Positions 4,030 to 61,168 are shown, counted from the first letter of the stretch. The stretch: DNA of 64,000 nucleotides from Paludibacteraceae bacterium (GCA_024689005.1 JAILDU010000093.1:649-64648); one strand, 5' to 3'. The notes: a model not told the origin generated them from the letters alone. Made by a program: numbers and translations.

Positions 4030-4204
4030 CTTTACACTCCAAAGTGGGGGGGGACAGTACAATTGGCAATAGCTCCTGATTGAAGCAATTTTAATGCTTC
4101 CAGTTTGACCTCTAAGGGCACTTTCTTCCACATAATAAAGTATTTAAAGTGTCCCAAAAACGGGGTACACTACAAGTCTGGACACGGTGTGATCAGCATA
4201 ATAT

Positions 4205-4314
4205 ATCGTATATGTATCGTGTATCTATCGTATATATAACGTGTATCTATCGTATATCTAACGTGTATCTATCGTATATCTTTCGTGTATCTATCGTGTA
4301 TGTATCGTAGTCGT
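4205..4314. repeat. Tandem array of ten contiguous 11-bp units (consensus ATCGTRTATCT)
   Basis: Units read directly from the sequence: atcgtatatgt, atcgtgtatct, atcgtatatat, aacgtgtatct, atcgtatatct, aacgtgtatct, atcgtatatct, ttcgtgtatct, atcgtgtatgt, atcgtagtcgt. CG occupies unit positions 3-4 in all ten. Confidence 0.95.
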
Positions 4315-4410: not shown

Positions 4411-4446
4411 TTGAGAATTGTGGGAATTGTGGGAATTGTGAGAATT
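4411..4446. repeat. Tandem array of four 9-bp units (GTGGGAATT family)
   Basis: Units are ttgagaatt, gtgggaatt, gtgggaatt, gtgagaatt. The array ends 12 nt before the -33 element of the waaA promoter. Confidence 0.9.
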
Positions 4447-4656: not shown

Positions 4657-5922
4657 ATGTGGATATATTTTTTAGCGATACGAATAGCTGCATTGTTCGG
4701 GCATAGGAAGGCTCGAAAACTGGTAGCGGGACAGCAGGAAACCCTGGCGCGACTCAAGACAGAGTTTGTCAATTACAAAGCGCCTATATGGATTCATGCT
4801 GCATCGGTGGGAGAGTTTGAACAGGCTCGTCCGCTGATAGAGCGTTTGCGTCGTGAGCAGCCCAACAGAAAGATAGTGCTGACCTTTTTCTCGCCGTCCG
4901 GATATGAGATGCGCAAGAACTATAATCAAGTGGATACGGTGTTGTATCTGCCGTTTGCCACGCGCAGAAATGCACGATTGTTTCTGGATGCGTTGCAGCC
5001 GAAGATGGCTATCTTTGTTAAGTATGAGTTCTGGCCGGCCTATCTGCGCGAACTGAAGAAACGCAAGATACGGACGTATAGTATCTCTGCTATCTTCCGT
5101 CCGGGACAGCTGTTCTTCCTGCCTTGGGGCAAGATGCACCTGCGCTTGCTGAAGTGCTTTACGCACATCTTCGTGCAGGACGAATCGTCGTACAATCTGC
5201 TGCAAAAGCACGGAATAAAAGATTGCTCCGTAGCCGGAGATACGCGATTTGACAGGATGCAAGAGGTGATGGCAAACCGCAAGCAAGTGCCTGTAGTAGA
5301 GGAGTTTATCAAGGGCGCAGAACGCGTGATAGTAGCCGGCAGCACGTGGCCGAAAGACGAAGAAATGCTGGTGCGTTATATAATAGAGCGCGGAGACTTG
5401 CAGCTGAACGGCACGACCAAGCTGGTATTGGTTCCGCACGAGATCAATGACGAACATCTGCATTTGATCTTCCAGATGCTGCAGGGCCGCATGGTTCGTT
5501 ATTCGGTAGTGAGCGAGCAGTTGACGACCAACGCCGGCAATGTGTCCACAGCGAGTGTGGAGAATATACTGCATCTGGCTCACGTGCTGGTTATAGACAC
5601 GATGGGCTTGCTGTCGTCTCTCTACCCGTACGGCCAGGTGGCATATGTGGGCGGCGGATTCGGAGTGGGTATTCACAATACGGTAGAGGCTGCAGTCTAT
5701 GGCATGCCTGTATTGTTCGGACCTAACTACAGCCATTTCCGCGAGGCGAAAGGCTTGATAGCAGCCGGGGCAGCACGCAGCGTGAAGAAATACAAGGAGT
5801 TGAAGGCCGCGCTGGACGATGCGCTCGTTCGCTACGAAGAGATGGGCGCCAAGGCGACCGAATATGTGGCAGCAGAGACGGGCGCTACGGACAAGATATA
5901 CACCAAGCTGTTTGCTAACTGA
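4657..5922 (+). CDS. waaA: 3-deoxy-D-manno-octulosonic acid (Kdo) transferase
   Basis: Characteristic N-terminus ...PIWIHAASVGEFEQARPLIERL...VLTFFSPSG, and 421 aa, which is typical for KdtA/WaaA. Confidence 0.9.
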   Translation: MWIYFLAIRIAALFGHRKARKLVAGQQETLARLKTEFVNYKAPIWIHAASVGEFEQARPLIERLRREQPNRKIVLTFFSPSGYEMRKNYNQVDTVLYLPFATRRNARLFLDALQPKMAIFVKYEFWPAYLRELKKRKIRTYSISAIFRPGQLFFLPWGKMHLRLLKCFTHIFVQDESSYNLLQKHGIKDCSVAGDTRFDRMQEVMANRKQVPVVEEFIKGAERVIVAGSTWPKDEEMLVRYIIERGDLQLNGTTKLVLVPHEINDEHLHLIFQMLQGRMVRYSVVSEQLTTNAGNVSTASVENILHLAHVLVIDTMGLLSSLYPYGQVAYVGGGFGVGIHNTVEAAVYGMPVLFGPNYSHFREAKGLIAAGAARSVKKYKELKAALDDALVRYEEMGAKATEYVAAETGATDKIYTKLFAN

Positions 5923-5940: not shown

Positions 5941-5984
5941 CCTTCGATATGCCTTCGATATGAGTTCGACAAGACCTCGATCGT
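5941..5984. repeat. Tandem array of four 11-bp units (CCTTCGATATG family)
   Basis: Units are ccttcgatatg, ccttcgatatg, agttcgacaag, acctcgatcgt. CG occupies unit positions 5-6 in all four. The array lies between waaA and hisS. Confidence 0.85.
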
Positions 5985-7386: not shown

Positions 7387-7414
7387 AAAGCTAATTATCA
7401 ATTGTCAATTATCA
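7387..7414. repeat. Four tandem 7-bp units (ATCAATT family) in the spacer just upstream of a start codon
   Basis: Units are atcaatt, gtcaatt, atcaact, atcaatt. The 21-mer tcaattatcaactatcaatta (7395-7415) recurs exactly at 59702-59722. Confidence 0.85.
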
Positions 7415-7430
7415 ACTATCAATTACCGAA

Positions 7431-21038: not shown

Positions 21039-21172
21039 GGCACTTCTAAAAAATCCATGTTTAAGGAGTTTCCCATAGTTAATAATATTTGAACTTTAAC
21101 ATGCTTTCGCGTTTACTCTTTGTCTTGCTATAAAAGAACCCTTAAAAAGAGTGTGGAGAATCTGCTTAACAT

Positions 21173-21282
21173 CAGCGTAAGGTCAGCGTAAGGTCTGCTG
21201 ATTATCTCGAGTATTGTCTAGGATTGTCTCGATATTAACTCGAAGTCAACTCGAAGTCAACTCGAAAGCATCTCGAAAAGTT
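21173..21282. repeat. Tandem array of ten 11-bp units in perfect register (mixed unit sequences)
   Basis: Units are cagcgtaaggt, cagcgtaaggt, ctgctgattat, ctcgagtattg, tctaggattgt, ctcgatattaa, ctcgaagtcaa, ctcgaagtcaa, ctcgaaagcat, ctcgaaaagtt. The array contains the dispersed 26-mer ctcgagtattgtctaggattgtctcg (21206-21231). Confidence 0.93.
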
Positions 21283-21346
21283 TTCGGTTATAAATAGAAA
21301 GTGCTCTGCGCAAATTATTGTTAGCAGAGTGATAAATCGTGTAATG

Positions 21347-21995: not shown

Positions 21996-22037
21996 TGTTG
22001 GCACACTATTTGAGCAAGGGAAGTGGGGAATAGTGTA

Positions 22038-22081
22038 AAACCCCGATGAAACCCCGATAAAATATCGAAAAAAGAGAAAGG
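22038..22081. repeat. Short 11-bp-register array (AAACCCCGATR family) upstream of grpE
   Basis: Units are aaaccccgatg, aaaccccgata, aaatatcgaaa, aaagagaaagg. The reverse complement of the ATCGGGGTTT units appears at 42612-42655. Confidence 0.75.
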
Positions 22082-28998: not shown

Positions 28999-30258
28999 AT
29001 GGAAAAGTTTAAACAAATATTTGCTTATATTCCATCCATCGGGTTATTGATGGTGTTGTGTACGTTGCCATATTTATATGGAGGCCTTCAACGTTTTGTT
29101 CTATATTTTGCTTGCATTAGTTATCTTATTGACTACGTACTAAATAAACGTTGGAAAGGTTGGCAATTAGACAAAGAGAAATGGGTATATATAGTATTTA
29201 TGTTTTTTTATCTATGTATCCCAATACGTCAGTTGTTTGATCCTTCGTGTACTTGGTTATATGAGCATAAGTTGGAATCTTATTTGCCATTTCTTGTCTT
29301 GGGGATAATGGGAATGATGGGATATAATCACACATTAAGATTGGAGCATGTAGCACTCGCCATGTCTCTCACTTGCTTGTTCTTCGGTTGTCAGTTGGCT
29401 TATCTCATGTCAGACGTGGTGTGTGACAATTTTCAGTCATGGCGCTCCCAACTGAACGAGATGCGTATATCGCATATTAATTCTCATATGGCAGTTAATG
29501 TTTACTGCAATCTAACGCTTGTGTTTGCTGCATGGACGATATTACAATCCTCTTGTCGCGTTTGGCTTAAATGGGTAATCGGACTCCTCTCAATCGGCAT
29601 TGTTGTCGGAATATTGTTGTCAGAAGGAAGAACGGGGCAAATAACTTTGGCAGTTCTCCTTATGATATTTGTTATTGTGTGGCTATGGAAACAATCGGAA
29701 AGTAAGTGGATCGTTCCAGCGTTGATTGCGCTGATGATAGGTGGAGGCTCGTATTGGTACTATTCTCCGCGTTTTCATGGTCCTTCTGCCTATGATAACC
29801 CTCGCCTCTATTTGTGGAAAATAGGTGTGCAAATAGCAAAAGAGAAACCATTAGCAGGGTGGGGCGTAAGTTCAGCACGTGCAGAATATGTAAAACGTGG
29901 ATTGGCAGATAAGGATTTTCAGATACACTACTTGCATGAATACGAGCACGCTTCTATGGAGCGATACGGTGTGGTCAGCTACGAAATTATTCACCCGCAT
30001 AATGTGTGCTTGGAAACTATGATGGAGTTTGGCATAATAGGCGTACTGATACTCTTTTTGTGCATGCTTTTGCCGATATGCTTGTCGCCTATAGGGAAAC
30101 TCCGTTGGTATTTGGCAGCTTGCATTTTTGTGTTTTTTATGCAAGCAATGTTCGAGAGTTTAGGCACAAGCCTATTGCCGATATGGTTGCCGTTGATGAC
30201 TTTTATATGGAGATATAATGCTGAGACAAAGAATGAAGTTGGTGTAGCAGTATCATAA
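28999..30258 (+). CDS. O-antigen ligase (WaaL / Wzy_C) family membrane protein
   Basis: Polytopic membrane protein with a central loop (LLSEGRTGQITLAVLL). Very AT-rich. It lies in a glycosylation context. Confidence 0.72.
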   Translation: MEKFKQIFAYIPSIGLLMVLCTLPYLYGGLQRFVLYFACISYLIDYVLNKRWKGWQLDKEKWVYIVFMFFYLCIPIRQLFDPSCTWLYEHKLESYLPFLVLGIMGMMGYNHTLRLEHVALAMSLTCLFFGCQLAYLMSDVVCDNFQSWRSQLNEMRISHINSHMAVNVYCNLTLVFAAWTILQSSCRVWLKWVIGLLSIGIVVGILLSEGRTGQITLAVLLMIFVIVWLWKQSESKWIVPALIALMIGGGSYWYYSPRFHGPSAYDNPRLYLWKIGVQIAKEKPLAGWGVSSARAEYVKRGLADKDFQIHYLHEYEHASMERYGVVSYEIIHPHNVCLETMMEFGIIGVLILFLCMLLPICLSPIGKLRWYLAACIFVFFMQAMFESLGTSLLPIWLPLMTFIWRYNAETKNEVGVAVS

Positions 30259-31101
30259 AACCTGTTTCGGTTTGCAACGTCCCGCGTACATTCCTCTTAT
30301 GTAGTTCTTGATTTTGTTGCACTTGTCATCCCAATCATAGAGACATAAGCGTTTCAATTCTTTTCTTAAGTACTTCTTGTAGTATTTGGCCATGTCCGGA
30401 TACAATTGAGCCATCCAACGCATATTTCGTGCTATGTAGAAATATCGCCAAGCAGTATGTGACGTGTAAGGATGATGTATTATCTTCACAATTTGTACGC
30501 CATTGCCCAAACTATGCGTTAACAGAATTTTGTTGGTACGAACGATTTGCCAGCCTTCTTGGCGCAAGTGACAGCATATTTCATCGTCCACATTATCTAT
30601 AAAGAAGTCTTCTCTAAACCCATTGACTTCTTGCCATGCCTTGAGGCGTAGCAGATTGCCTGAGCACATGATAATTTTCTTTTGTTCAAATCGCCCGAGT
30701 GTTTTGTGCACCTCCGGATGTCCATCGCAATCATGGAAAGGAGCAAAGATACCAACTTTTTCAAAATCAGGATATTGCGCTGCTTCGTCTATGTATTGCT
30801 GTACAGAATGTTGATTCCAAAGAGAATCTTGGTCCATGGTTAAGACCCATTCTGCTCCTAATTGAAGTGCCTTGTTGCAGCCGATATTTAGTGCTGCAGC
30901 AATCCCCTTGTTGGCGCAAAGAGGGATGTAGTGAGCATTTGCAATATCAGCGCATAATCTGCTATTGTCCGTATCACTATTATCAACTATGATGACGTGT
31001 TCAAAATTGTCCTTGTAGAGTGATAGCGCATGCACCTCTTTTTGCGAAGGATGGAACCAAATAACAAGGGCAACAATACTATTAAATTTTTCGAATGCCA
31101 T
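30253..31101 (-). CDS. GT2-family glycosyltransferase (rhamnosyltransferase-like)
   Basis: VALVIWFHP...IIVDNSDTDN...NKGIAAALN...TMDQDS. Its 3' end overlaps the convergent waaL-like gene by 6 nt. Confidence 0.78.
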   Translation of the reverse strand: MAFEKFNSIVALVIWFHPSQKEVHALSLYKDNFEHVIIVDNSDTDNSRLCADIANAHYIPLCANKGIAAALNIGCNKALQLGAEWVLTMDQDSLWNQHSVQQYIDEAAQYPDFEKVGIFAPFHDCDGHPEVHKTLGRFEQKKIIMCSGNLLRLKAWQEVNGFREDFFIDNVDDEICCHLRQEGWQIVRTNKILLTHSLGNGVQIVKIIHHPYTSHTAWRYFYIARNMRWMAQLYPDMAKYYKKYLRKELKRLCLYDWDDKCNKIKNYIRGMYAGRCKPKQVL

Positions 31102-31855: not shown

Positions 31856-33384
31856 CGAATTCCGTATTGTGTGGTTGTCAGATGTTGTTTTTTTGTTTCG
31901 TTCCAGATGGCTTTGTTTCGTCTAAAGTCCTCTTCGTTACGGTAAGGGCGTTTGTGAAAGAGATGTAAGAGTGGCGTTCCGTATCTCAATTGAATACCGG
32001 TTATACCAGCATTCTCCAATCGTTGACCAAATTCGCGGTCTTCAGCTCCGTAACGCATACGTGTATCAAAACCATTTGCACGGATGATATATTCGCGCCA
32101 TGTAGAAGCATTTCCTCCGTTCCATGAAGCCTTCGTTGGCGTAATCCAATTCATCACTTTGCATACAAAAGAGTTGTGCCATAGTTTGCTCATCTTCCAA
32201 TTCCATGGCATTCCATGTTGTCTCAACCAATTGATGCAGAACGCATTTCCGCTTGCAATATCCTCTTCTGATAAAGCATGACTCAATTGTTCGGGCAACA
32301 TGATTGCACCACCGGAAACAAAGTGTCCATGCGCGGCATGTCTGTAATGCTGACTGATAAAATCTTTTCTCGGTATTAAGTCTTGATCGATAAAGATCAG
32401 ATAATCGCTTTGGGCAATAGTAACGGCTTTGTTCAGTATTTCTGTTTTGCGGAAACCATGGTCCTCGTGCCATACATGTCTTAAAGGTAATAGCGTAGAG
32501 TATTGCTCTATGAGCGCAGCAGTTCGTTGGTCTGAGCCATCATCGGCAATGATTATTTCGGTAGACCGGTGCGTTTGATATTTCAGTCCCCAGAGAACTT
32601 TCTCAAGCCAAGTCGGATTGTTGTATGTGGATACAATAACACCAACAGAAAATGTGTCATCGGTAACGAAATGTTCATGTGAATGGTGCTTCCAAAAACG
32701 TGTTCGCGCAGTTTGTATCCATTGTATGCAATCAGTTTCGCTTATATTTCTATCTGCAGCATAAATCGGACACAAAGATTCAAAGAAATCCTTTTTCCCC
32801 CAAAGGCGGCACAAGTTGTTACACCCCTGGCGAGGAGAAACATAGCCGAACTGCATTCGGTTGATATCCACCAATTCAAACTGCCACTTGTTATTAACCT
32901 TTCCGTAGAGAATGTTTCCCGGAGACAAATCTTTGTGCAACACGCCTGCATTATGTAACGATGCTGCAAAATGTGCGAAAGCCTCAATCAAGTCCTCTTT
33001 GCCTGCAATATTACCATCTCTGAAGTTGTAGAAACTCTGAGTGAACCGGCTTTGCAGGGTGATGAGATAAGATTCTTCTATAAGACCATTTCCGCAAAGA
33101 ATGTATGCTATAGGAGTCGGTGTCGCAATTCCTCGTTTCTTTAACTCAAAAGCATTTCTGTATGCAGATTCTGCCTTTGGAGTGCGAAACAAAGTATAAA
33201 CTAAGCGATTGAACCAAATGGGTCGTTTATAACGTTTTACGCACAACGAAAATCCGTTATACGTGATTAGTCTTATTTGGTTGCGTTCGTTATAGATTAC
33301 CTTTCCTAATTGTTCAAACTGCTGTGGAATCAATTGCAGCCATTCACGCAACTGTTCATATTGTGGATTGACTATTATCTTCAT
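31852..33384 (-). CDS. Fusion protein with an N-terminal LPS-kinase (Kdo/WaaP/InaA family) domain and a C-terminal GT2 glycosyltransferase domain
   Basis: The kinase catalytic loop is LHKDLSPGNILY, followed by ELVDINRMQF. The GT2 start is VGVIVSTYNNPTWLEKVL...IIADDGSD...FIDQD. Confidence 0.75.
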   Translation of the reverse strand: MKIIVNPQYEQLREWLQLIPQQFEQLGKVIYNERNQIRLITYNGFSLCVKRYKRPIWFNRLVYTLFRTPKAESAYRNAFELKKRGIATPTPIAYILCGNGLIEESYLITLQSRFTQSFYNFRDGNIAGKEDLIEAFAHFAASLHNAGVLHKDLSPGNILYGKVNNKWQFELVDINRMQFGYVSPRQGCNNLCRLWGKKDFFESLCPIYAADRNISETDCIQWIQTARTRFWKHHSHEHFVTDDTFSVGVIVSTYNNPTWLEKVLWGLKYQTHRSTEIIIADDGSDQRTAALIEQYSTLLPLRHVWHEDHGFRKTEILNKAVTIAQSDYLIFIDQDLIPRKDFISQHYRHAAHGHFVSGGAIMLPEQLSHALSEEDIASGNAFCINWLRQHGMPWNWKMSKLWHNSFVCKVMNWITPTKASWNGGNASTWREYIIRANGFDTRMRYGAEDREFGQRLENAGITGIQLRYGTPLLHLFHKRPYRNEEDFRRNKAIWNETKKQHLTTTQYGIR

Positions 33385-34325
33385 TTCGTTTCCAGTAGTT
33401 TGTTAACAATTTCTTCAGGTGTGATATCCAGGCAGCGATAGTCGCCATATTTGCATTTCTTGTTGCCATAGATAGAGCAAGGACGGCATGGCATATCATG
33501 TTGTATGCAGTCGGACTCTTTTTGTCCGAAGCCTAAGAATCCAGCATTGGGATGCGTAGCGCCCCAAATAGAGATGACTCGTGTCCCAGCCAAAGAAGCA
33601 AGGTGCATGTTTGCGCTATCCATAGTAAGCATGACGCGCAGGTTTTTCATTCGCTTTAGGTCGCTCAAGATCCCGGAATTGACTCGAGTATTGTCTAGGA
33701 TTGTCTCGGAATCAACCCACGATTGTAATATACTTATTTCTTTTTCTCCTGCTCCAAACAAGACGACCTTTTCTCCTCGGTTACGTAGCAATTTGACCAC
33801 CTGTTCCATCTTGTCGATGGGATATATTTTTCCTCTGTGTGCAGCAAAAGGTGCGATACCGATACCCTCTCCTGATGTGCTGATGGATGGTTGCGGCAAA
33901 AGAATAGGAAAACCTATGCGTCGCAGTACATCAGCATATCGCTCAATCATCGGCACGAGAGGTTTCCGTATCCAACCATGAGTGAGCATCCATTTTTGGA
34001 TGCGTCCTTTGTGTAAGGTTGCCACGTGTGCGCCGCGTAGTCTCATGCACCAACGAATGTAGAGCGAGCGCCAGACACCATGCATGTCTGCCACATAATC
34101 GTATTTGCCCAAACGATTTATTATCTCTCGAAGTGACTCTTTTTTTGTGTCCACTCCCAGAAAATGTACGTTATGCGGCATGTCAGCGTACAAGTCCGCC
34201 ATGCGTTGTCGCGAAAGCATGGTAATTTCCGTGTCCGGATATTGTTCGGCTAGTGCGCGAACAACGGGAACCAGCATAGCGACATCGCCTAAAGCGGAGA
34301 AACGTATGACAAGTATGCGTATCAT
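33381..34325 (-). CDS. GT9-family glycosyltransferase (heptosyltransferase)
   Basis: MIRILVIRFSALGDVAMLVPVVRAL...MDSANMHLASLAGTRVISIWGATHP. Confidence 0.85.
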   Translation of the reverse strand: MIRILVIRFSALGDVAMLVPVVRALAEQYPDTEITMLSRQRMADLYADMPHNVHFLGVDTKKESLREIINRLGKYDYVADMHGVWRSLYIRWCMRLRGAHVATLHKGRIQKWMLTHGWIRKPLVPMIERYADVLRRIGFPILLPQPSISTSGEGIGIAPFAAHRGKIYPIDKMEQVVKLLRNRGEKVVLFGAGEKEISILQSWVDSETILDNTRVNSGILSDLKRMKNLRVMLTMDSANMHLASLAGTRVISIWGATHPNAGFLGFGQKESDCIQHDMPCRPCSIYGNKKCKYGDYRCLDITPEEIVNKLLETK

Positions 34326-37335: not shown

Positions 37336-38088
37336 TCAGTTATCCACCACTTTAGTCTTTTTCTTCAATTCAAAATCTCGTCCCAAATAGTTCTGTCTAA
37401 CCACCGGGTTGGCTGCCAGTTCCTCAGGAGTGCCGTGGAAAAGGATTTTTCCCTCAAACAATAGATAAGCGCGGTCTGTAATCATTAGCGTTTCATCTAC
37501 GTTATGGTCTGTAATCAGAATACCTATATTCTTGTCTTTTAGACGCCAAACAACGTCTTGAATCTCTTGTACAGCAATCGGGTCCACTCCGGCAAAAGGT
37601 TCGTCCAACATGACGAACTTAGGTTCTATGGCCAGACAGCGTGCAATCTCTGTACGGCGGCGTTCTCCACCACTCAGGCGGTCACCCAGATTCTTGCGAA
37701 CGTGCGCCAAGTTGAACTCTTTGATCAACTGCTCCAGTTTTTCCTCCTGATACTCTTTGCTGAATTCAGTCAGTTCCAATACAGAGCGAATATTGTCTTC
37801 TACTGTCATTTTTCGAAAGACACTCGCTTCCTGTGGTAGATAACCGATTCCCATCTTGGCACGTTTGTACATTGGAAATGCTGTTATGTCTTGGTCGTTA
37901 AGAAATATCTTACCATGATTGGCCGTTACCAAGCCGGTTGTCATATAGAAGGTGGTTGTCTTGCCGGCTCCGTTCGGGCCCAGCAACCCCACTATCTCAC
38001 CTTGTTCCAGCTCGATAGACACATCGTTGACAACAGTTCGTTTGCCGTATTTCTTTATGAGATGTTCTGTGCGTAACTTATCCATCAA
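37336..38088 (-). CDS. lptB: LPS export ABC transporter ATP-binding protein
   Basis: [40 protein letters not shown], and the LptB-type C-terminal extension. Confidence 0.9.
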
Positions 38089-38098
38089 TTCTCGATTA

Positions 38099-38863
38099 TC
38101 AATTATCTATTTGCACCATCACTGGGCAGTGGTCAGAATGGACTGCATCGGTCAGTATCTTTGCATCTTTGAGTCGGCTGCGCAAGGGTTCGCTTACCCA
38201 ATGGTAATCGATTCGCCAGCCCACATTGCGTGCGCGTGCTCCGGCTCGCCAACTCCACCAACTATAGCGCTCTGCACTTTGGTCAAACACGCGAAAACTA
38301 TCCACCATGCCGCTTGCTTCCCAACGATCCATCCATTCGCGCTCTTCCGGTAAGAAGCCGGACACGCCTATTTGGCGTTCGGGGTGATTAATATCTATTG
38401 GCTTGTGACAAATGTTATAATCTCCGCATACCACTATGTTCGGTCGCTCTTTGCGCAGGTCGTTGATCCACACTAAGAAATCCTCCAGAAATTCCATCTT
38501 GAAGTCTTGGCGAACATCGCCGGTAGTGCCACTCGGAATATATGCATCCACTATAGTTATGTCACCGAAGTCTGCTCTTAGTACACGTCCTTCGCGGTCG
38601 TATTTGGGATTACCCATACCCACAACCACTTTGTCCGGTTGCTGTTTGCAAAAGATACACACGCCCGAGTAGCCTTTCTTTTCAGCCGAATGGATGTAAC
38701 TGTGATATCCCAGTTCTTGCATTGCCAGCACGTCTATCTGTTCCGGCTGTGCTTTACTTTCCTGAATGCAGAATACATCCGGTTTTTCCGTTTGCAGCCA
38801 ATCCAATAGTCCTTTGCCTATGGCAGATCGTATTCCGTTGAGATTATAACTGATGATTTTCAT
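38099..38863 (-). CDS. xth: Exodeoxyribonuclease III
   Basis: [14 protein letters not shown]..., DVFCIQE, GDYNICH, SDHCPV. Confidence 0.93.
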
Positions 38864-40855: not shown

Positions 40856-41620
40856 TCAATTATCTTTGTTGGCTGCCTTCACTTTCTTGAATAGTTCGGA
40901 GGCGAAGACAAAATCGTTGAGTGCTTCGTTGTCGCTGTTCATTATCTCGTGTCGGCTGCCTTGCCACTCTTTCTTGCCGCCTTTCATGAAGATGATATTG
41001 TCGCCTATCTCCATGATGGAGTTCATGTCGTGGCTGTTCACTATTGTACAAATCTTATATTCGCGAGTGATGTCTTGTATCAGCGCGTCTATCACGAGAC
41101 TGGTCTTTGGATCGAGTCCCGAGTTCGGTTCGTCGCAAAACAGGTATTTGGGTTCCAATACGCTGGCGCGCGCAATAGCCACCCGTTTCTGCTGTCCACC
41201 GCTTATCTCGCTCGGCATCAGGTTCCACACTCGCTCGGGTATCTCTACGCGTCGCAGGCAAAACTCTGCACGTGCCTGCATCTCTTCGCGGGAGTGATGG
41301 GCGAACATCTCCATAGGGAAAAGCACGTTTTCCATCACCGTAAGCGAGTCGAACAAGGCGCATCCCTGAAACAGCATTCCCACTTCGCGGTGGAGCGCGC
41401 GTATCTCTTTGTTTTTCATTCTGGCTATGTCTCGTCCGTCATAGAGTATCGAGCCGCTGTCCACATTGTGCAGACCGATGAGCGACTTCATGAACACGGT
41501 CTTACCGCTACCCGATTGACCGATGATCATGTTCACTTCGCCATCGTGCAATTCGGTTGAAACATGGTTCAATACCACATTTCCGTCAAAACTCTTAACT
41601 ATATCTCTAACCTCAATCAT
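40856..41620 (-). CDS. mlaF: MlaF-like ABC transporter ATP-binding protein
   Basis: IEVRDIVKSFDG..., GQSGSGKT, ISGGQQKRVAIARA. Confidence 0.82.
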   Translation of the reverse strand: MIEVRDIVKSFDGNVVLNHVSTELHDGEVNMIIGQSGSGKTVFMKSLIGLHNVDSGSILYDGRDIARMKNKEIRALHREVGMLFQGCALFDSLTVMENVLFPMEMFAHHSREEMQARAEFCLRRVEIPERVWNLMPSEISGGQQKRVAIARASVLEPKYLFCDEPNSGLDPKTSLVIDALIQDITREYKICTIVNSHDMNSIMEIGDNIIFMKGGKKEWQGSRHEIMNSDNEALNDFVFASELFKKVKAANKDN

Positions 41621-42354
41621 AGCAGCAATTTACTTAAAACAAGGTCTAAGAACAATATCATGATATTGCTGTTCACCACGGCATTGGTACTTGCCTTACC
41701 CACTTCCAGCGCACCGCCGCGTGCGTAATAGCCGTAGTAACTGGACATGCTGGTTATCACGAATGCAAACACCAGCGCTTTGATCATGGCGTACCATACA
41801 AAATACGGATTGAATGCGTATTGCACTCCCAGCAAGTAATCGTGAATGGTGATGATGTCCGTTAGCGCTCCCACGCCATAACCGCCCACCAGGCCGGCTG
41901 CAGTGGAGATAATCACCAGCAGCGGCATCATGCTCATGAACGCAAGAATCTTCGGCAATATCAGATAATTGGCACTATTCACGCCCATTATCTCCAATGC
42001 GTCTATCTGCTCTGTTATGCGCATCGTGCCTATCTCTGAGGCAATATTACTGCCCACTTTGCCCGCCAATATCAAGCACAGAATGGTACTCGAAAATTCC
42101 AGCAACAACGTGTCGCGCGTAAGCAATCCTACTATATACGTTGGCAGTAACGGGTTCTCTGTGTTTGTCTTGGCCTGAATGGTCAGAATTGCGCCAATGA
42201 AAACCGATATCAACAGCACAATCGGCAACGACTGAAGTCCTTGCTTCTCCAACTCACGGCTGTACTGACGCCAAAACATTCGCTGACGGTCAGGCATTCG
42301 CAATACCCTGCCCATCAGTAATGTATATTCTCCTATGTGTCGAAACAATTGCAT
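41617..42354 (-). CDS. mlaE: MlaE-family ABC transporter permease
   Basis: Polytopic protein with an MlaE-like pattern (...ITEQIDALEIMGVN...). The ATG at 42354 is preferred because the 42381 start overlaps the -7 box of the promoter. Confidence 0.82.
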   Translation of the reverse strand: MQLFRHIGEYTLLMGRVLRMPDRQRMFWRQYSRELEKQGLQSLPIVLLISVFIGAILTIQAKTNTENPLLPTYIVGLLTRDTLLLEFSSTILCLILAGKVGSNIASEIGTMRITEQIDALEIMGVNSANYLILPKILAFMSMMPLLVIISTAAGLVGGYGVGALTDIITIHDYLLGVQYAFNPYFVWYAMIKALVFAFVITSMSSYYGYYARGGALEVGKASTNAVVNSNIMILFLDLVLSKLLL

Positions 42355-42378: not shown

Positions 42379-42410
42379 CAAAGATACTACTTTTTTCTCA
42401 TATATGCAAA
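42379..42410 (-). promoter_or_regulatory. Bacteroidota -33/-7 promoter driving the mlaE...LOS gene string
   Basis: On the minus strand: TTTG (42410-42407), a 20-nt spacer with an A6 tract, then TATCTTTG (42386-42379) followed by CGCGA. Confidence 0.75.
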
Positions 42411-42490
42411 TATCGAGCCACCTTTTTGCATATTTTGTGTTTTCCTAAAATTTGCAGACATTATATTGGCTATTCTTAGTACCAATAGGT

Positions 42491-42655
42491 TAATTGTCTC
42501 GGAATTGACTCGGAGTTGACCCACGTATTGTCTAGGATTGACTCGTAATCGTCCCGTAATCGTCCCGTAATTGTCTTGAAGACATATCGAAGGCAATTCG
42601 AAGACAATTCGAATTTTTATCGGGGTTTGTTCGGGGTTTTATCGGGGTTTGGTCA
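42491..42655. repeat. Tandem array of fifteen 11-bp units in perfect register (165 bp)
   Basis: Units are taattgtctcg, gaattgactcg, gagttgaccca, cgtattgtcta, ggattgactcg, taatcgtcccg, taatcgtcccg, taattgtcttg, aagacatatcg, aaggcaattcg, aagacaattcg, aatttttatcg, gggtttgttcg, gggttttatcg, gggtttggtca. CG sits at the unit end in 11 of 15 units. Confidence 0.95.
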
Positions 42656-43150
42656 GGCTTTCTCAGAATGTAGCAATTCTTCTACCATATTGGAGTTGTA
42701 GTATTCGGGTTGTCCGGTTACTTCTTGTCCGAGCCATTCCGGGCGTTCGTACTGTTCGTTCTCGTCCTCCATCTCCAGTTCGGCGAGTCTGCGTCCTTCG
42801 AGGCGTCCGTGGAAGACGTCCACTTCCCATTTGCGTCCTTGCACTCCTTTTACGTTAGCGGGAATGATGTAACGTGTCTTTTCTATAATGCACGGCAGGC
42901 ACGCTTTGAGCATCTGTCGCGCGTCGTCCACATCTATCTCGCGTTCCCACTCAAAGCGCCCGATACCCACCTGGTCGATGGTTGATTTGATGGTGAGGAA
43001 TGCCTGGTTGTCGCGCAAACGGATACGTATCGTACGCTCGGGGTCCAAGCAGAGATAACCCTGCGTAATATGGTGACTATCAGTTGCTTCTGATATGAAT
43101 GCATCAGATGTAACGAGAAACTTGCGCTCAATCTCTTTGTTCTTTGACAT
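42653..43150 (-). CDS. CYTH-domain protein (triphosphatase / CyaB-like)
   Basis: N-terminal EIERKFLV signature, 165 aa. Confidence 0.85.
   Translation of the reverse strand: MSKNKEIERKFLVTSDAFISEATDSHHITQGYLCLDPERTIRIRLRDNQAFLTIKSTIDQVGIGRFEWEREIDVDDARQMLKACLPCIIEKTRYIIPANVKGVQGRKWEVDVFHGRLEGRRLAELEMEDENEQYERPEWLGQEVTGQPEYYNSNMVEELLHSEKA

Positions 43151-54843: not shown

Positions 54844-54844
<1 letters not shown>
52928..54844 (-). CDS. dxs: 1-deoxy-D-xylulose-5-phosphate synthase
   Basis: GHLASSLG, VWDVGHQAYAHK, IGDGAMTGG, 638 aa. Confidence 0.97.
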
Positions 54845-57477
<2,633 letters not shown>

Positions 57478-57705: not shown

Positions 57706-58482
57706 TTATTCCATGCTGATTACAGTCACTTCTGCGATTGTTCTTCCTCCCTCGCGAAGATGCAGCTTCTGGCCGATGAATGATACAAGTCCGCAATAGG
57801 CTTGCTTAATTTCAATAGTAGCATTGTAGCATGTATCGCCCGGCATCAACAAGTCTGTTACCTCATTCTTACTATTAGTTCCAAGGGATGTCACTTCCGA
57901 AAGAATATCAGTTTTTCCGTTGTTGAGCATCGGTTTATAACCGGCGAAGAAAGGTGTGTGAGTTCCGCCTTCTTCCTTGGTAAATTTATGTATGTCGCAA
58001 AAGAACTTGTGCGCTTTGAAGTACGGAGAATTCTCTGCTGCCACAATGGCTCCGCCTCTCTGACCTGTCAGTTTTTCCTTGACTGAAGTGCTAACAAGGA
58101 ATCCGAGTCGGTTGACTGTGTCCATTTCTGCCGTAGATTGATAGGTCTTTTTGCCTCTCTGAAGGCCTTTGATGGTGTCGCAGAATGAAGCCAGCGTGTC
58201 GGACACAGGGATGAAACGAATGACGTCGCCCACGCTGAGAGTGGTATTGCTGAGCAAAGTGTCGCATGTGACTATTGTTCCTCTGCCTGTGAGTTGCAAT
58301 ATGTCGTCTATGTAGGCCAATATGTCGTTACTCTTGGCAAAAGTGATGCTATCTACCATCTCAAAAGCTTTCTGTTCTACAATGTGGCCGTTCTTCCAGA
58401 TCTTCATGATTCGTGTCTGTTCCTGGGCCATAGCACTTGTTGCTACTATGGCAGCAAGTGCAAAAAGTATAATCTTTTTCAT
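57706..58482 (-). CDS. Secreted protein homologous to EF-Tu domains II and III (no G domain)
   Basis: Signal peptide MKKIILFALAAIVATSAMA. Colinear EF-Tu matches are GRGTIVT, VGDVIRF, KEEGGTHTPFFAGYKP, LLMPGD and LREGGRTIAEVTV. Confidence 0.7.
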   Translation of the reverse strand: MKKIILFALAAIVATSAMAQEQTRIMKIWKNGHIVEQKAFEMVDSITFAKSNDILAYIDDILQLTGRGTIVTCDTLLSNTTLSVGDVIRFIPVSDTLASFCDTIKGLQRGKKTYQSTAEMDTVNRLGFLVSTSVKEKLTGQRGGAIVAAENSPYFKAHKFFCDIHKFTKEEGGTHTPFFAGYKPMLNNGKTDILSEVTSLGTNSKNEVTDLLMPGDTCYNATIEIKQAYCGLVSFIGQKLHLREGGRTIAEVTVISME

Positions 58483-58522
58483 ATTCTTTAATTCTTTAAT
58501 TCTTTCATTCGTTCACTCTTTA

Positions 58523-59011
58523 TCATTTCTTGATAAATTTGACTATTTCTGCTCCGACTTGCAGCAGGTAATCGCCGCTATTTAGGCCGGACACGTTGAT
58601 TACGGCGTTGCCGTCAGATGTGCGGCTTGCTGAGATCAGCTGGCCGTTCAGGCTGTAGATGCGAATCGTTTGATCCCCGTCCATCCCTTCTACCGTGATG
58701 ATGTCTGCCGTTGGATTCGGGTAAACATAAATACCGGTTTTTACGTTGTCAATGGCCTCATCCTCAGGAGGAGTAGGCGGAACGCGGTTAGCAAAAAAGA
58801 TTTTGCGAATCTGGTCGGCAGGGGTGCTTCCGAGTTCGTTGCCCGAAACATCGTAGAGTACCACGTTCTTTCCGTGAAACTCCAGATGCCCGATCGTGCT
58901 CAACGCCGTCGCTTGCTCAGAGCCTTCTATAGGAAGGATGATCAGGCACTTCTCTGCCATCACCATTACTGCACACAGCAGCATGGGGAGAATTGAGAAA
59001 AATTTTTTCAT
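58523..59011 (-). CDS. Small secreted protein with a T9SS (Por) C-terminal sorting domain
   Basis: Signal peptide, a PPTPPEDE linker, then a type-A CTD pattern (IYVYPNPTADIITVEG...IRIYSLNGQLI...LNSGDYLLQV...KFIKK). Confidence 0.7.
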   Translation of the reverse strand: MKKFFSILPMLLCAVMVMAEKCLIILPIEGSEQATALSTIGHLEFHGKNVVLYDVSGNELGSTPADQIRKIFFANRVPPTPPEDEAIDNVKTGIYVYPNPTADIITVEGMDGDQTIRIYSLNGQLISASRTSDGNAVINVSGLNSGDYLLQVGAEIVKFIKK

Positions 59012-59321: not shown

Positions 59322-59354
59322 TCGTCGGTATCTCGTCGGTATCTCGTCGGTATC
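59322..59354. repeat. Three perfect tandem 11-bp units (TCGTCGGTATC)
   Basis: tcgtcggtatc occurs three times, contiguous, with degenerate flanks. Confidence 0.9.
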
Positions 59355-59413
59355 TTCTCAGCCTCTTTTTTCGTTTTTTTTAACGAGTATATTTGATAAA
59401 TCAAATAGAATAT

Positions 59414-59490
59414 TTTTCGGACCCGTTTTCCGCGCATTTCGGTATTGAGGTTTTATCGAGGTTTTGACGGGTTTTATTGAGCTTATTTCC
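59414..59490. repeat. Degenerate 11-bp-register array with phased T-tracts (GAGGTTTTATC family)
   Basis: The core units are gaggttttatc, gaggttttgac, gggttttattg. TTT(T) tracts recur at about 10-14 bp intervals from 59414 to 59488. Confidence 0.7.
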
Positions 59491-59654: not shown

Positions 59655-59727
59655 CTGCGTTTTTGTAAATTATCAATCAACATCCGCTTAACGAAAAACT
59701 ATCAATTATCAACTATCAATTATCCTC

Positions 59728-60946: not shown

Positions 60947-61001
60947 ACCATAGGATAACCATAGGATAACCATAGAATAACCATAGGATAACCATAGGAT
61001 A
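60947..61001. repeat. Five tandem 11-bp units (ACCATAGGATA)
   Basis: Units are accataggata x2, accatagaata, accataggata x2, contiguous. This is the only array with no CpG in its unit. Confidence 0.95.
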
Positions 61002-61168
61002 AAGCCACCTTTCCCGTACTCTGTCTTCTGTCTCTCGCGTTATCTACTATATATACTTTGTATATATACTTTTTTCACAATGTCTTGTGGAAACGAATCG
61101 GACTAAAACCGCCCAAATATCCCGATAATCACACCTTTGTACTTTTTTTACAAAAAAATCAAGAAATA

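Follow-up and report, generated by a model that had tools for sequence, protein, structure and literature searches.

An array of 11-bp units upstream of mlaE in a Paludibacteraceae genome is probably one copy of a dispersed, lineage-specific minisatellite

Between a CYTH-domain gene and the mlaE permease gene of a Paludibacteraceae MAG lies a run of head-to-tail 11-bp units in which the words differ while a CpG returns in one phase, and the question it raises is whether such a tract serves the neighbouring mlaE promoter or belongs to something wider. The source genome was surveyed over the 64,000-nucleotide stretch of DNA that contains the tract (the window), and its relatives were sampled as 80 loci retrieved via MlaE, 1.35 Mb in total. 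The reading that we consider probable is that the focal tract is a copy of a lineage-specific dispersed 11-bp minisatellite, which would evolve by slippage and by ectopic or out-of-register gene conversion, and whose host range is a clade of rumen and gut Paludibacteraceae. The focal array is thus unlikely to be a control element that serves the mlaE promoter in particular. The features on which the argument draws are collected in Table 1.

Table 1. Position of the focal array, its blocks, the other 11-bp arrays and the flanking genes, numbered from the first nucleotide of the window.
Feature	Position	Strand	Basis or remark
Focal array, 15 x 11 bp, one register	42491..42655		lag-11 identity, TRF
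Block A, 5 units, words ATTGTCTCG / ATTGACTCG, near family consensus ATTGTCTCGAn	42491..42545	+	unit profile
Core 20-mer TATTGTCTAGGATTGACTCG, W = A variant, in block A	42526..42545	+	20-mer search
Block B, TAATCGTCCCG x2 and TAATTGTCTTG	42546..42578	+	word ATCGTCCCGTA/T also in L218, L224, L233
Block C, AAGACAATTCG-type units	42579..42611	+	inverted block A word (AATTGTC / GACAATT), same CG register
Block D, GGGTTTTATCG-type units	42612..42655	+	only strongly curved part (predicted); word also at 22036-22066 (reverse complement) and 59443-59481
Sister array, intergenic, exact core 21212-21231	21172..21290	+	TRF, 20-mer search
GT9-gene array, 5 units, exact core 33689-33708	33667..33721	+	gene 33381..34325(-); ~16-18 codons overwritten, length unchanged
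valS-linker array, exact core 55272-55291	55272..55326	+	gene 54844..57477, minus strand
11-bp array, TATCGTATATC / TATCGTGTATC	4204..4309		word also in L146, L151, L213
11-bp array, ATATGCCTTCG-type	5942..5981		word also in L233
11-bp array, TAAAACCCCGA	22036..22066		reverse complement of block D word
11-bp array, TCGTCGGTATC x3	59322..59355		TRF, lag scan
11-bp array, TATCGAGGTTT-type	59443..59481		block D word
11-bp array, ACCATAGGATA x5, without CG	60947..61002		TRF, lag scan
CYTH-domain gene	42653..43150	-	stop codon inside last, degenerate array unit
mlaE permease gene	41617..42354	-	start ATG 42354 picked by N-terminal agreement with relatives
mlaE core promoter, -33 TTTG 42410-42407, -7 TATCTTTG 42386-42379	42379..42410	-	read from sequence

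Re-reading of the focal tract bore out an earlier note on this DNA, which had parsed it without indels into 15 consecutive 11-mers. That note had also described them as fifteen different 11-mers; the number of units stands and their being all different does not, since TAATCGTCCCG is present twice and the distinct units number 14. CG closes 11 of the 15 units and the remaining four end in CA, TA, TG and CA, exactly as had been recorded, and it is equally correct that the period and the CpG phase are better kept than any one word. Within the unit, conservation is best at position 10, where C stands in 13/15, position 11, with G in 12/15, position 9, which T (11) and C (4) share, and position 4, with T in 11/15. 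Compared with itself, the array has an identity of 0.63 at lag 11; the value falls to 0.51 and 0.44 at lags 22 and 33, every other lag from 1 to 39 gives 0.16–0.34, and the best lag (5–24) among 1000 dinucleotide-preserving shuffles of the same tract did not exceed 0.41. TRF resolves the tract into four adjoining period-11 sub-arrays; at least four words are found inside this single array, and the words of blocks C and A form inverted pairs, such as I1, with 19-nt arms that are 84% complementary, and I5, with 9-nt arms that are 100% complementary. Runs of six TCGs spaced 11 bp apart occur twice in the window, where 0.00 are expected. With its head-to-tail units of fixed period and no spacers, the focal array has the layout of a tandem minisatellite or VNTR; a CRISPR array is rejected because the units abut and unique spacers are absent, and the tract is not an ordinary microsatellite either, both as previously stated.

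The placement of the array between the CYTH stop and the mlaE promoter is as the earlier note gave it. Promoters of Bacteroidota follow the consensus TTTG / TAnnTTTG, and the mlaE core promoter (Table 1), which is kept in relatives, is separate from the array, which lies ~105–270 bp upstream of the -7 box. No intrinsic terminator was found 3' of CYTH on the minus strand. The CYTH protein itself has a 10-residue C-terminal extension, VEELLHSEKA (42653–42684), that is present in no aligned homologue, the homologues ending in ...YYNxNM, and an out-of-frame TAG just past the ATG of the last conserved M suggests a 1-bp insertion that removed the ancestral stop. Palindromic motifs, TTTGCATAT / ATATGCAAA, occupy 42400–42461 between the array and the mlaE -7 box, and TTGCATAT motifs occur again upstream of mlaE in relatives L129, L132, L133, L151 and L152; together these motifs may represent the -33 region and an operator.

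Upstream of mlaE an 11-bp array is also found in five of 28 relatives, in each case made up of unrelated words, a share that exceeds our rough estimate of ~5% for the per-spacer array background and so counts against the minisatellite reading. Two relatives (L130 and L131) have no array at mlaE, despite having their upstream gene in common with the array-bearing L132. In L132 (9715–9799) the array stands between the stop codon of the upstream gene and a hairpin terminator, and would be transcribed as part of the 3' UTR, and in L133 (9662–9716) it begins just past the terminator, so that the position of arrays relative to terminators is not fixed.

Autocorrelation against shuffled controls had been proposed as a check on the 11-bp register; a lag-match scan of the 64-kb window and its relatives showed the register to be enriched in the window and in the closest relatives. 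Within the window no tandem period but 11, which has eight segments in the scan, is strongly enriched; other, non-multiple periods from 4 to 24 gave 0–2 segments each, and shuffles gave 0. The seven other arrays detected by the scan all sit between housekeeping genes. In the 1.35 Mb from relatives, tandem arrays of period 7 (n=49), 11 (n=25) and 8 (n=17) are over-represented, with only 3–7 each at periods 5, 6, 10, 12 and 13. The closest relatives (L129–L152) contribute 18 period-11 arrays in 411 kb, and the more distant ones ~5 genuine arrays in 936 kb.

Tandem arrays of other periods were seen alongside these. The window contains heptamer arrays at 7393–7425, 38084–38111 and 59697–59724 (AATTATC, ATCAATT and TATCAAT), and others are found in L151 (~4915–5000, AAGGTGA, in the mlaE 5' leader) and L129 (~8217); intergenic heptamer arrays have been reported for Paludibacter and other Bacteroidetes (PMC4679880), and the heptamers of this clade recall them. 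An 8-bp array, ATTCTTTA x5 (58483–58522), occupies the whole spacer that separates gene 57706..58482(-) from gene 58523..59011(-), and a 9-bp array, GAATTGTGG x3.6 (4415–4446), lies ~100 bp from the 4204–4309 array within one spacer. In L001 (2086–4180) an 11-bp array of TTCCTTCGTAG units (4095–4156) is located between an RVT_1 reverse-transcriptase gene and a DUF1016 gene; the instance stands alone, and no wider association was seen.

The period-11 arrays form a family, with a core and a vocabulary of words in common. The 20-mer TATTGTCTAGGATTGWCTCG has four copies in the window against 0.02 expected, located in the focal array, the intergenic array (21212), the GT9 gene (33689) and valS (55272); copies with 2–3 mismatches number zero in the window, and the sole imperfect copy is the focal one, with one mismatch. 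The same 20-mer is present in 24 metagenome contigs, of which one is orthologous to the window, and ~17 of these contig copies lie inside 11-bp-register arrays that keep CTCG/CCCG in phase for 2–5 units on each side. As one sequence at many unlinked loci, it is an interspersed repeat. Words also recur between loci and genomes, namely ATCGTCCCGTA, TATCTATCGTA / TATCCTACGTA, AAAACCCCGAT, ATGCCTTCGAT and AGTGGCTCGAG, and a comparison of unit consensus sequences from different genomes gave 40 pairs identical at 8 or more of 11 positions (15.9 +/- 3.7 in shuffled units) and eight pairs identical at 9 or more (1.7 shuffled). A conserved array 'tail', CTCGTAAAAGT, did not rise above chance. In sister species with 93–95% MlaE identity the exact core is absent except in valS, and an nhmmer model of the core region returned only the valS copies and weak array matches from the sampled DNA of these species.

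The core is oriented opposite to its flanking genes in eight cases and with them in five, and 20 arrays lie in tandem spacers, 7 in divergent and 0 in convergent ones, where spacer length predicts 17.4, 7.3 and 2.3; the mixed orientation and this split indicate no promoter or RNA role. The dispersal of the family, its coding members and its occurrence in either gene orientation speak against any role tied to the mlaE promoter alone. All four core copies of the window (4/4) are on the plus strand. At ~30250 the genes switch from plus to minus (convergent 28999..30258 and 30253..31101), GC skew changes sign and cumulative skew peaks at ~30 kb, which could be a replication terminus or a coding-strand effect; given this flip in gene orientation and skew, no consistent replication polarity of the Chi or KOPS kind can be claimed.

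The unit profile of the family is A-T-T-G-T-C-T-C-G-A-n. Of 36 unit consensus sequences, 27 contain CG, compared with 16.3 +/- 2.5 in shuffled units, and 22 contain TCG or CGA, compared with a 25% background. The profiled units were chosen for an in-phase CG, so that the CG columns themselves are weightless, and the profile has further preferences outside them, with C at position 6 (0.64) and T at position 7 (0.69) preceding CG, and C nearly excluded at position 10. The CG phase is retained in orthologous valS arrays despite their differing peptides. A Y-C-G phase that is stricter than a purely neutral model needs, in valS as elsewhere, hints at a constraint at the DNA level, imposed for instance by a protein that binds the arrays or by the way they are copied, and to that extent counts against the minisatellite reading.

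Members of the family also reside within genes, the clearest series being in valS. In the valS product, the linker that joins the anticodon-binding domain to the C-terminal coiled coil is hypervariable in sequence and length among close relatives, and in several species its DNA is an 11-bp array, each with its own homogenised word and one CG phase: ATTSTCTCGAT in the window, TTGCTCTCGTG in L235, and ATGAGTCCGAG x3 in L234, where the repeat amounts to 33 bp or 11 aa. The valS array of the window is retained in the near-conspecific contigs L209 and L227. Identity between L209 and the window is 96.7% for valS and 90.6% for the gene downstream of it, and a ~75 bp A-rich spacer separates the two genes in L209 (905–980) while they abut in the window (54844). 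In polA of L211 the core and its array lie in an interdomain linker of DNA polymerase I. The GT9 homologues are equal in length and differ in a 16–18-residue patch, in which five array units replace nearly invariant residues, the window reading SETILDNTRVNSGILSD where the consensus is KYPNVESxAGxYSLREE. Where the core occurs in real genes it is always read as ETILDN and lies in poorly conserved linkers; for some array-free coding matches, e.g. the DPP4-like orthologues of L229 and L230, the best account is a peptide motif that is conserved, together with the selection effect of an exact-match search.

Comparison of close strains reveals how such arrays change. In L214 and L223, whose flanks are 99% identical, a 45-bp patch beside the core in one corresponds to an unrelated 43-bp patch in the other, with the CG phase kept, and in L217 and L224 the total array length is equal while the core is displaced by 22 bp. 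A metagenome 20-mer scan and protein look-ups found no strain-level relative covering the focal locus, and the strain change described here was seen at other family members. Replacements with little or no net change in length (L214/L223, L217/L224 and GT9) are what out-of-register or ectopic conversion would be expected to give, and not simple insertion. The start of the core varies by lineage as well, being TATTG- in all copies of the window lineage and TAAAG- both in valS of the sister species L235 and, in three further related species (L130, L138 and L141), in intergenic arrays. The invariant part of the core, GTCTAGGATT, corresponds to the I-L-D codons of valS, of which I-L is kept even in distant homologues. 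Since the conserved double unit GTCTAGGATTG matches the valS codons of this partly conserved motif, the valS array is perhaps the oldest or master copy of the family; these sequence patterns suggest this origin, and also that copies within a genome evolve in concert, although they do not amount to proof.

On the minisatellite reading, arrays would grow, shrink and swap words by replication slippage of whole units and by homology-driven gene conversion, which may act in or out of register and within one array or between loci. Because every such event would move whole 11-bp units, the period and the phase of the best-kept part of the founder unit (Y-C-G) would be inherited. The founder would have been ATTGTCTCGAn, possibly born in valS, and the other unit positions would drift and then be homogenised locally into 'words'. 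Copies would survive where they are tolerated, in intergenic spacers and protein linkers, and the array between CYTH and mlaE would be a tolerated hypervariable passenger, perhaps with incidental effects on DNA shape, and presumably no dedicated regulator of mlaE. Against this reading counts that no route by which copies reach new loci was found, there being no sign of a transposase, of terminal inverted repeats, of target-site duplications or of hairpins.

A number of other identities were tried and set aside. Folding of the two strands was not significant (z = -1.1 and +0.8), Rfam gave no match at the gathering threshold nor at E <= 1, and a tRNA/tmRNA search returned none; with the mixed gene orientation, the folding and Rfam results rule out a structured RNA family. 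The 20-mer is absent from viral contigs, which disposes of a phage origin. An anchored alignment of 28 copies shows no conserved ends beyond the array units, and without conserved terminal or leader–tail sequences the family is not a MITE; nor is it a palindrome of the REP/RPE type, there being no significant hairpin and only short internal inverted words. Array pairs do flank single genes, as the ends of gene cassettes or transposons would, but these are housekeeping genes (waaA, hisS, grpE and rplM) and terminal repeats were not seen. A C-rich 3' UTR array resembling Rho-utilisation sites is contradicted by the sense strand of block B, which is without YC dimers, and by a core orientation of 8 to 5. 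Shuffling by restriction at TCGA and religation is contradicted by the presence of TCGA at only about one third of junctions and by an inverted block that, as read from sequence, is 1 bp off the CG register.

Of the functional readings, the one that most deserves discussion is a phased platform, in which a putative nucleoid-associated protein or regulator would bind once per helical turn with Y-C-G-R presented on one face; GTCTAGGATTG would be a site of high affinity where binding nucleates, to spread cooperatively over the degenerate flanking units, the few contacts leaving the words free to vary while selection keeps the arrays. It would account for the CG phase, with TCG/CGA far above composition, for the unit preferences outside the CG columns, for the core being kept in arrays of several species, and for the recurrence upstream of mlaE of arrays with different words in relatives; the inverted word of block C, in the same register, fits a site usable both ways, and by analogy the OmpR/PhoB-type 11-bp direct-repeat operators and the ParR–parC iterons offer precedents. 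We nevertheless regard it as rather unlikely, in view of copies inside essential genes that overwrite conserved residues, of arrays that are hypervariable between near-identical strains, of the lack of positional preference relative to promoters, and of sister species (93–95% MlaE identity) without the exact core outside valS, while the codon constraint in valS explains conservation of the core with no binding protein. In its narrower form, as an 11-bp operator of a response regulator or ParR type, it is rejected on the at least four words of the focal array, its distance of 105–270 bp from the -7 box and the coding copies. A kindred proposal, which we would place a shade lower and still call doubtful, is that an undescribed DNA-level system, either sequence-directed copying and conversion or a chromatin protein needing Y-C-G-R once per turn, writes a valS-born array into spacers and into polA and GT9, overwriting what was there with length and register kept. 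A molecular-drive signal, that is, an uptake-signal-like motif or the target of a putative sequence-directed copying enzyme, is very unlikely. Exact 20-mers in both coding and non-coding DNA, the constant ETILDN reading of the genic core in poorly conserved linkers and replacement without net change in length would all suit it, but drive by point mutation would leave many imperfect 20-mers and the window has no copies with 2–3 mismatches, some of the array-free coding matches are accounted for by a conserved peptide and the exact-match search, and no candidate enzyme was identified.

The leading idea of the earlier note, intrinsic curvature or an UP-like element, which would act by raising or tuning the activity of the mlaE promoter, does not survive as a unifying explanation and now appears quite improbable. 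Under a wedge model whose parameter values call for caution, a reservation that itself tells against the idea, the GGGTTTT/AAAACCCC words reach the 99th–100th percentile of predicted curvature, so that block D (42620–42655) and the arrays at 22036 and 59443 are predicted to be curved, and there is a well-defined promoter downstream of the focal array. By the same model, however, blocks B and C are not curved, five other arrays (4204, 5942, 21172, 59322 and 60947) fall at the 36th–79th percentile, and the end-to-end/contour ratio of the whole focal array is 0.93, near the shuffle mean of 0.95. Phased A/T tracts beside a core promoter are what define curved DNA of the UP type; here predicted curvature is confined to block D and the promoter is more than 100 bp away, the 105–270 bp to the -7 box exceeding the range of UP elements, and like arrays are found in coding DNA and in operon-internal spacers. 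A slippage-prone contingency tract had also been suggested, and of this the slippage stands at the level of the family, given the 22-bp shift of the core and the replaced units in strain pairs, and the switch does not. That changes in unit number would switch or tune mlaE or CYTH expression finds some encouragement in the 22-bp-step variation among family members of different strains and in the intergenic position of arrays, but the tract sits between the end of the CYTH coding sequence and the -33 element, clear of the -33/-7 spacer and of any mlaE reading frame, the strain changes conserve total length or nearly so, and the genes next to arrays are housekeeping ones (waaA, hisS, grpE, rplM, valS and polA) and not those of surface antigens; a contingency locus is accordingly the least credible of these readings.

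Dispersed repeats are well studied in proteobacteria (REP, ERIC, Correia and RPE) but, to our knowledge, barely described in Bacteroidota, and our literature search, which took in the motif as well as 11-bp arrays from Bacteroidota and Paludibacteraceae, found no description. Rickettsia palindromic elements (RPE) are selfish palindromes of ~100–150 bp that occur in frame in essential genes as well as between genes; the family described here resembles them as a short dispersed repeat that is both intergenic and in frame at tolerant surface or linker positions, and differs in consisting of tandem 11-mers, in having no significant hairpin and in that some events replace rather than insert. REP elements are hairpins mobilised by RAYT transposases and MIRU units are 40–100 bp long; REP/BIME and MIRU share with the 11-bp arrays a high copy number in short co-directional spacers and strain-variable copy number, but show no 11-bp register and no CpG phase. 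Operators of the OmpR/PhoB family, with the direct repeat units of the PHO box, and the 11-bp parC iterons bound by ParR support cooperative binding on one face of the DNA, and like the present arrays are direct repeats one helical turn apart; they have one conserved word, few copies and promoter or centromere-like sites, whereas here the words differ and the copies are scattered, genes included. The BrickBuilt MITE/minisatellite of Porphyromonas gingivalis is likewise a dispersed, species-restricted, spacer-free and multicopy array from Bacteroidales (PMC4596501). Its units, however, measure 23 nt, its leader and tail are conserved and have small inverted repeats, and its copies are always intergenic (PMC4596501), in place of the 11-bp unit, absence of conserved ends and genic copies seen here. 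Long simple-sequence repeats, or prokaryotic minisatellites with units of 5–11 nt (Mrazek et al. 2007, as presented in PMC4679880), resemble the family in being spacer-free and head-to-tail, mostly non-coding, sporadic and lineage-specific in abundance, with change between strains of a kind that slippage would give. According to that source (PMC4679880) heptamers are usually commonest, in contrast to the strong enrichment of period 11 alongside 7 and 8 found here, and mixed words in one register, a core common to several loci and entry into coding sequence in 33-bp steps set the present family apart from the repeats as treated there. The family fits the definition of a dispersed minisatellite and lacks what defines MITEs, REP/RPE hairpins, CRISPR and repeat operators.

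For annotation, the practical consequence is that arrays of this kind should not be taken as locus-specific regulatory elements. What makes the family unusual is a period locked at the helical turn, interchangeable words in a single CpG register, and copies that form or overwrite parts of the essential products of valS, polA and a GT9 glycosyltransferase gene. If it is neutral or selfish, it would provide a clean natural case of concerted evolution and ectopic conversion shaping spacers and linkers in uncultured gut bacteria, and a ready VNTR marker for typing strains of these MAG lineages; if instead a bound protein or enzyme lies behind the CpG phase, the family would point to an unknown chromatin or DNA-copying activity.
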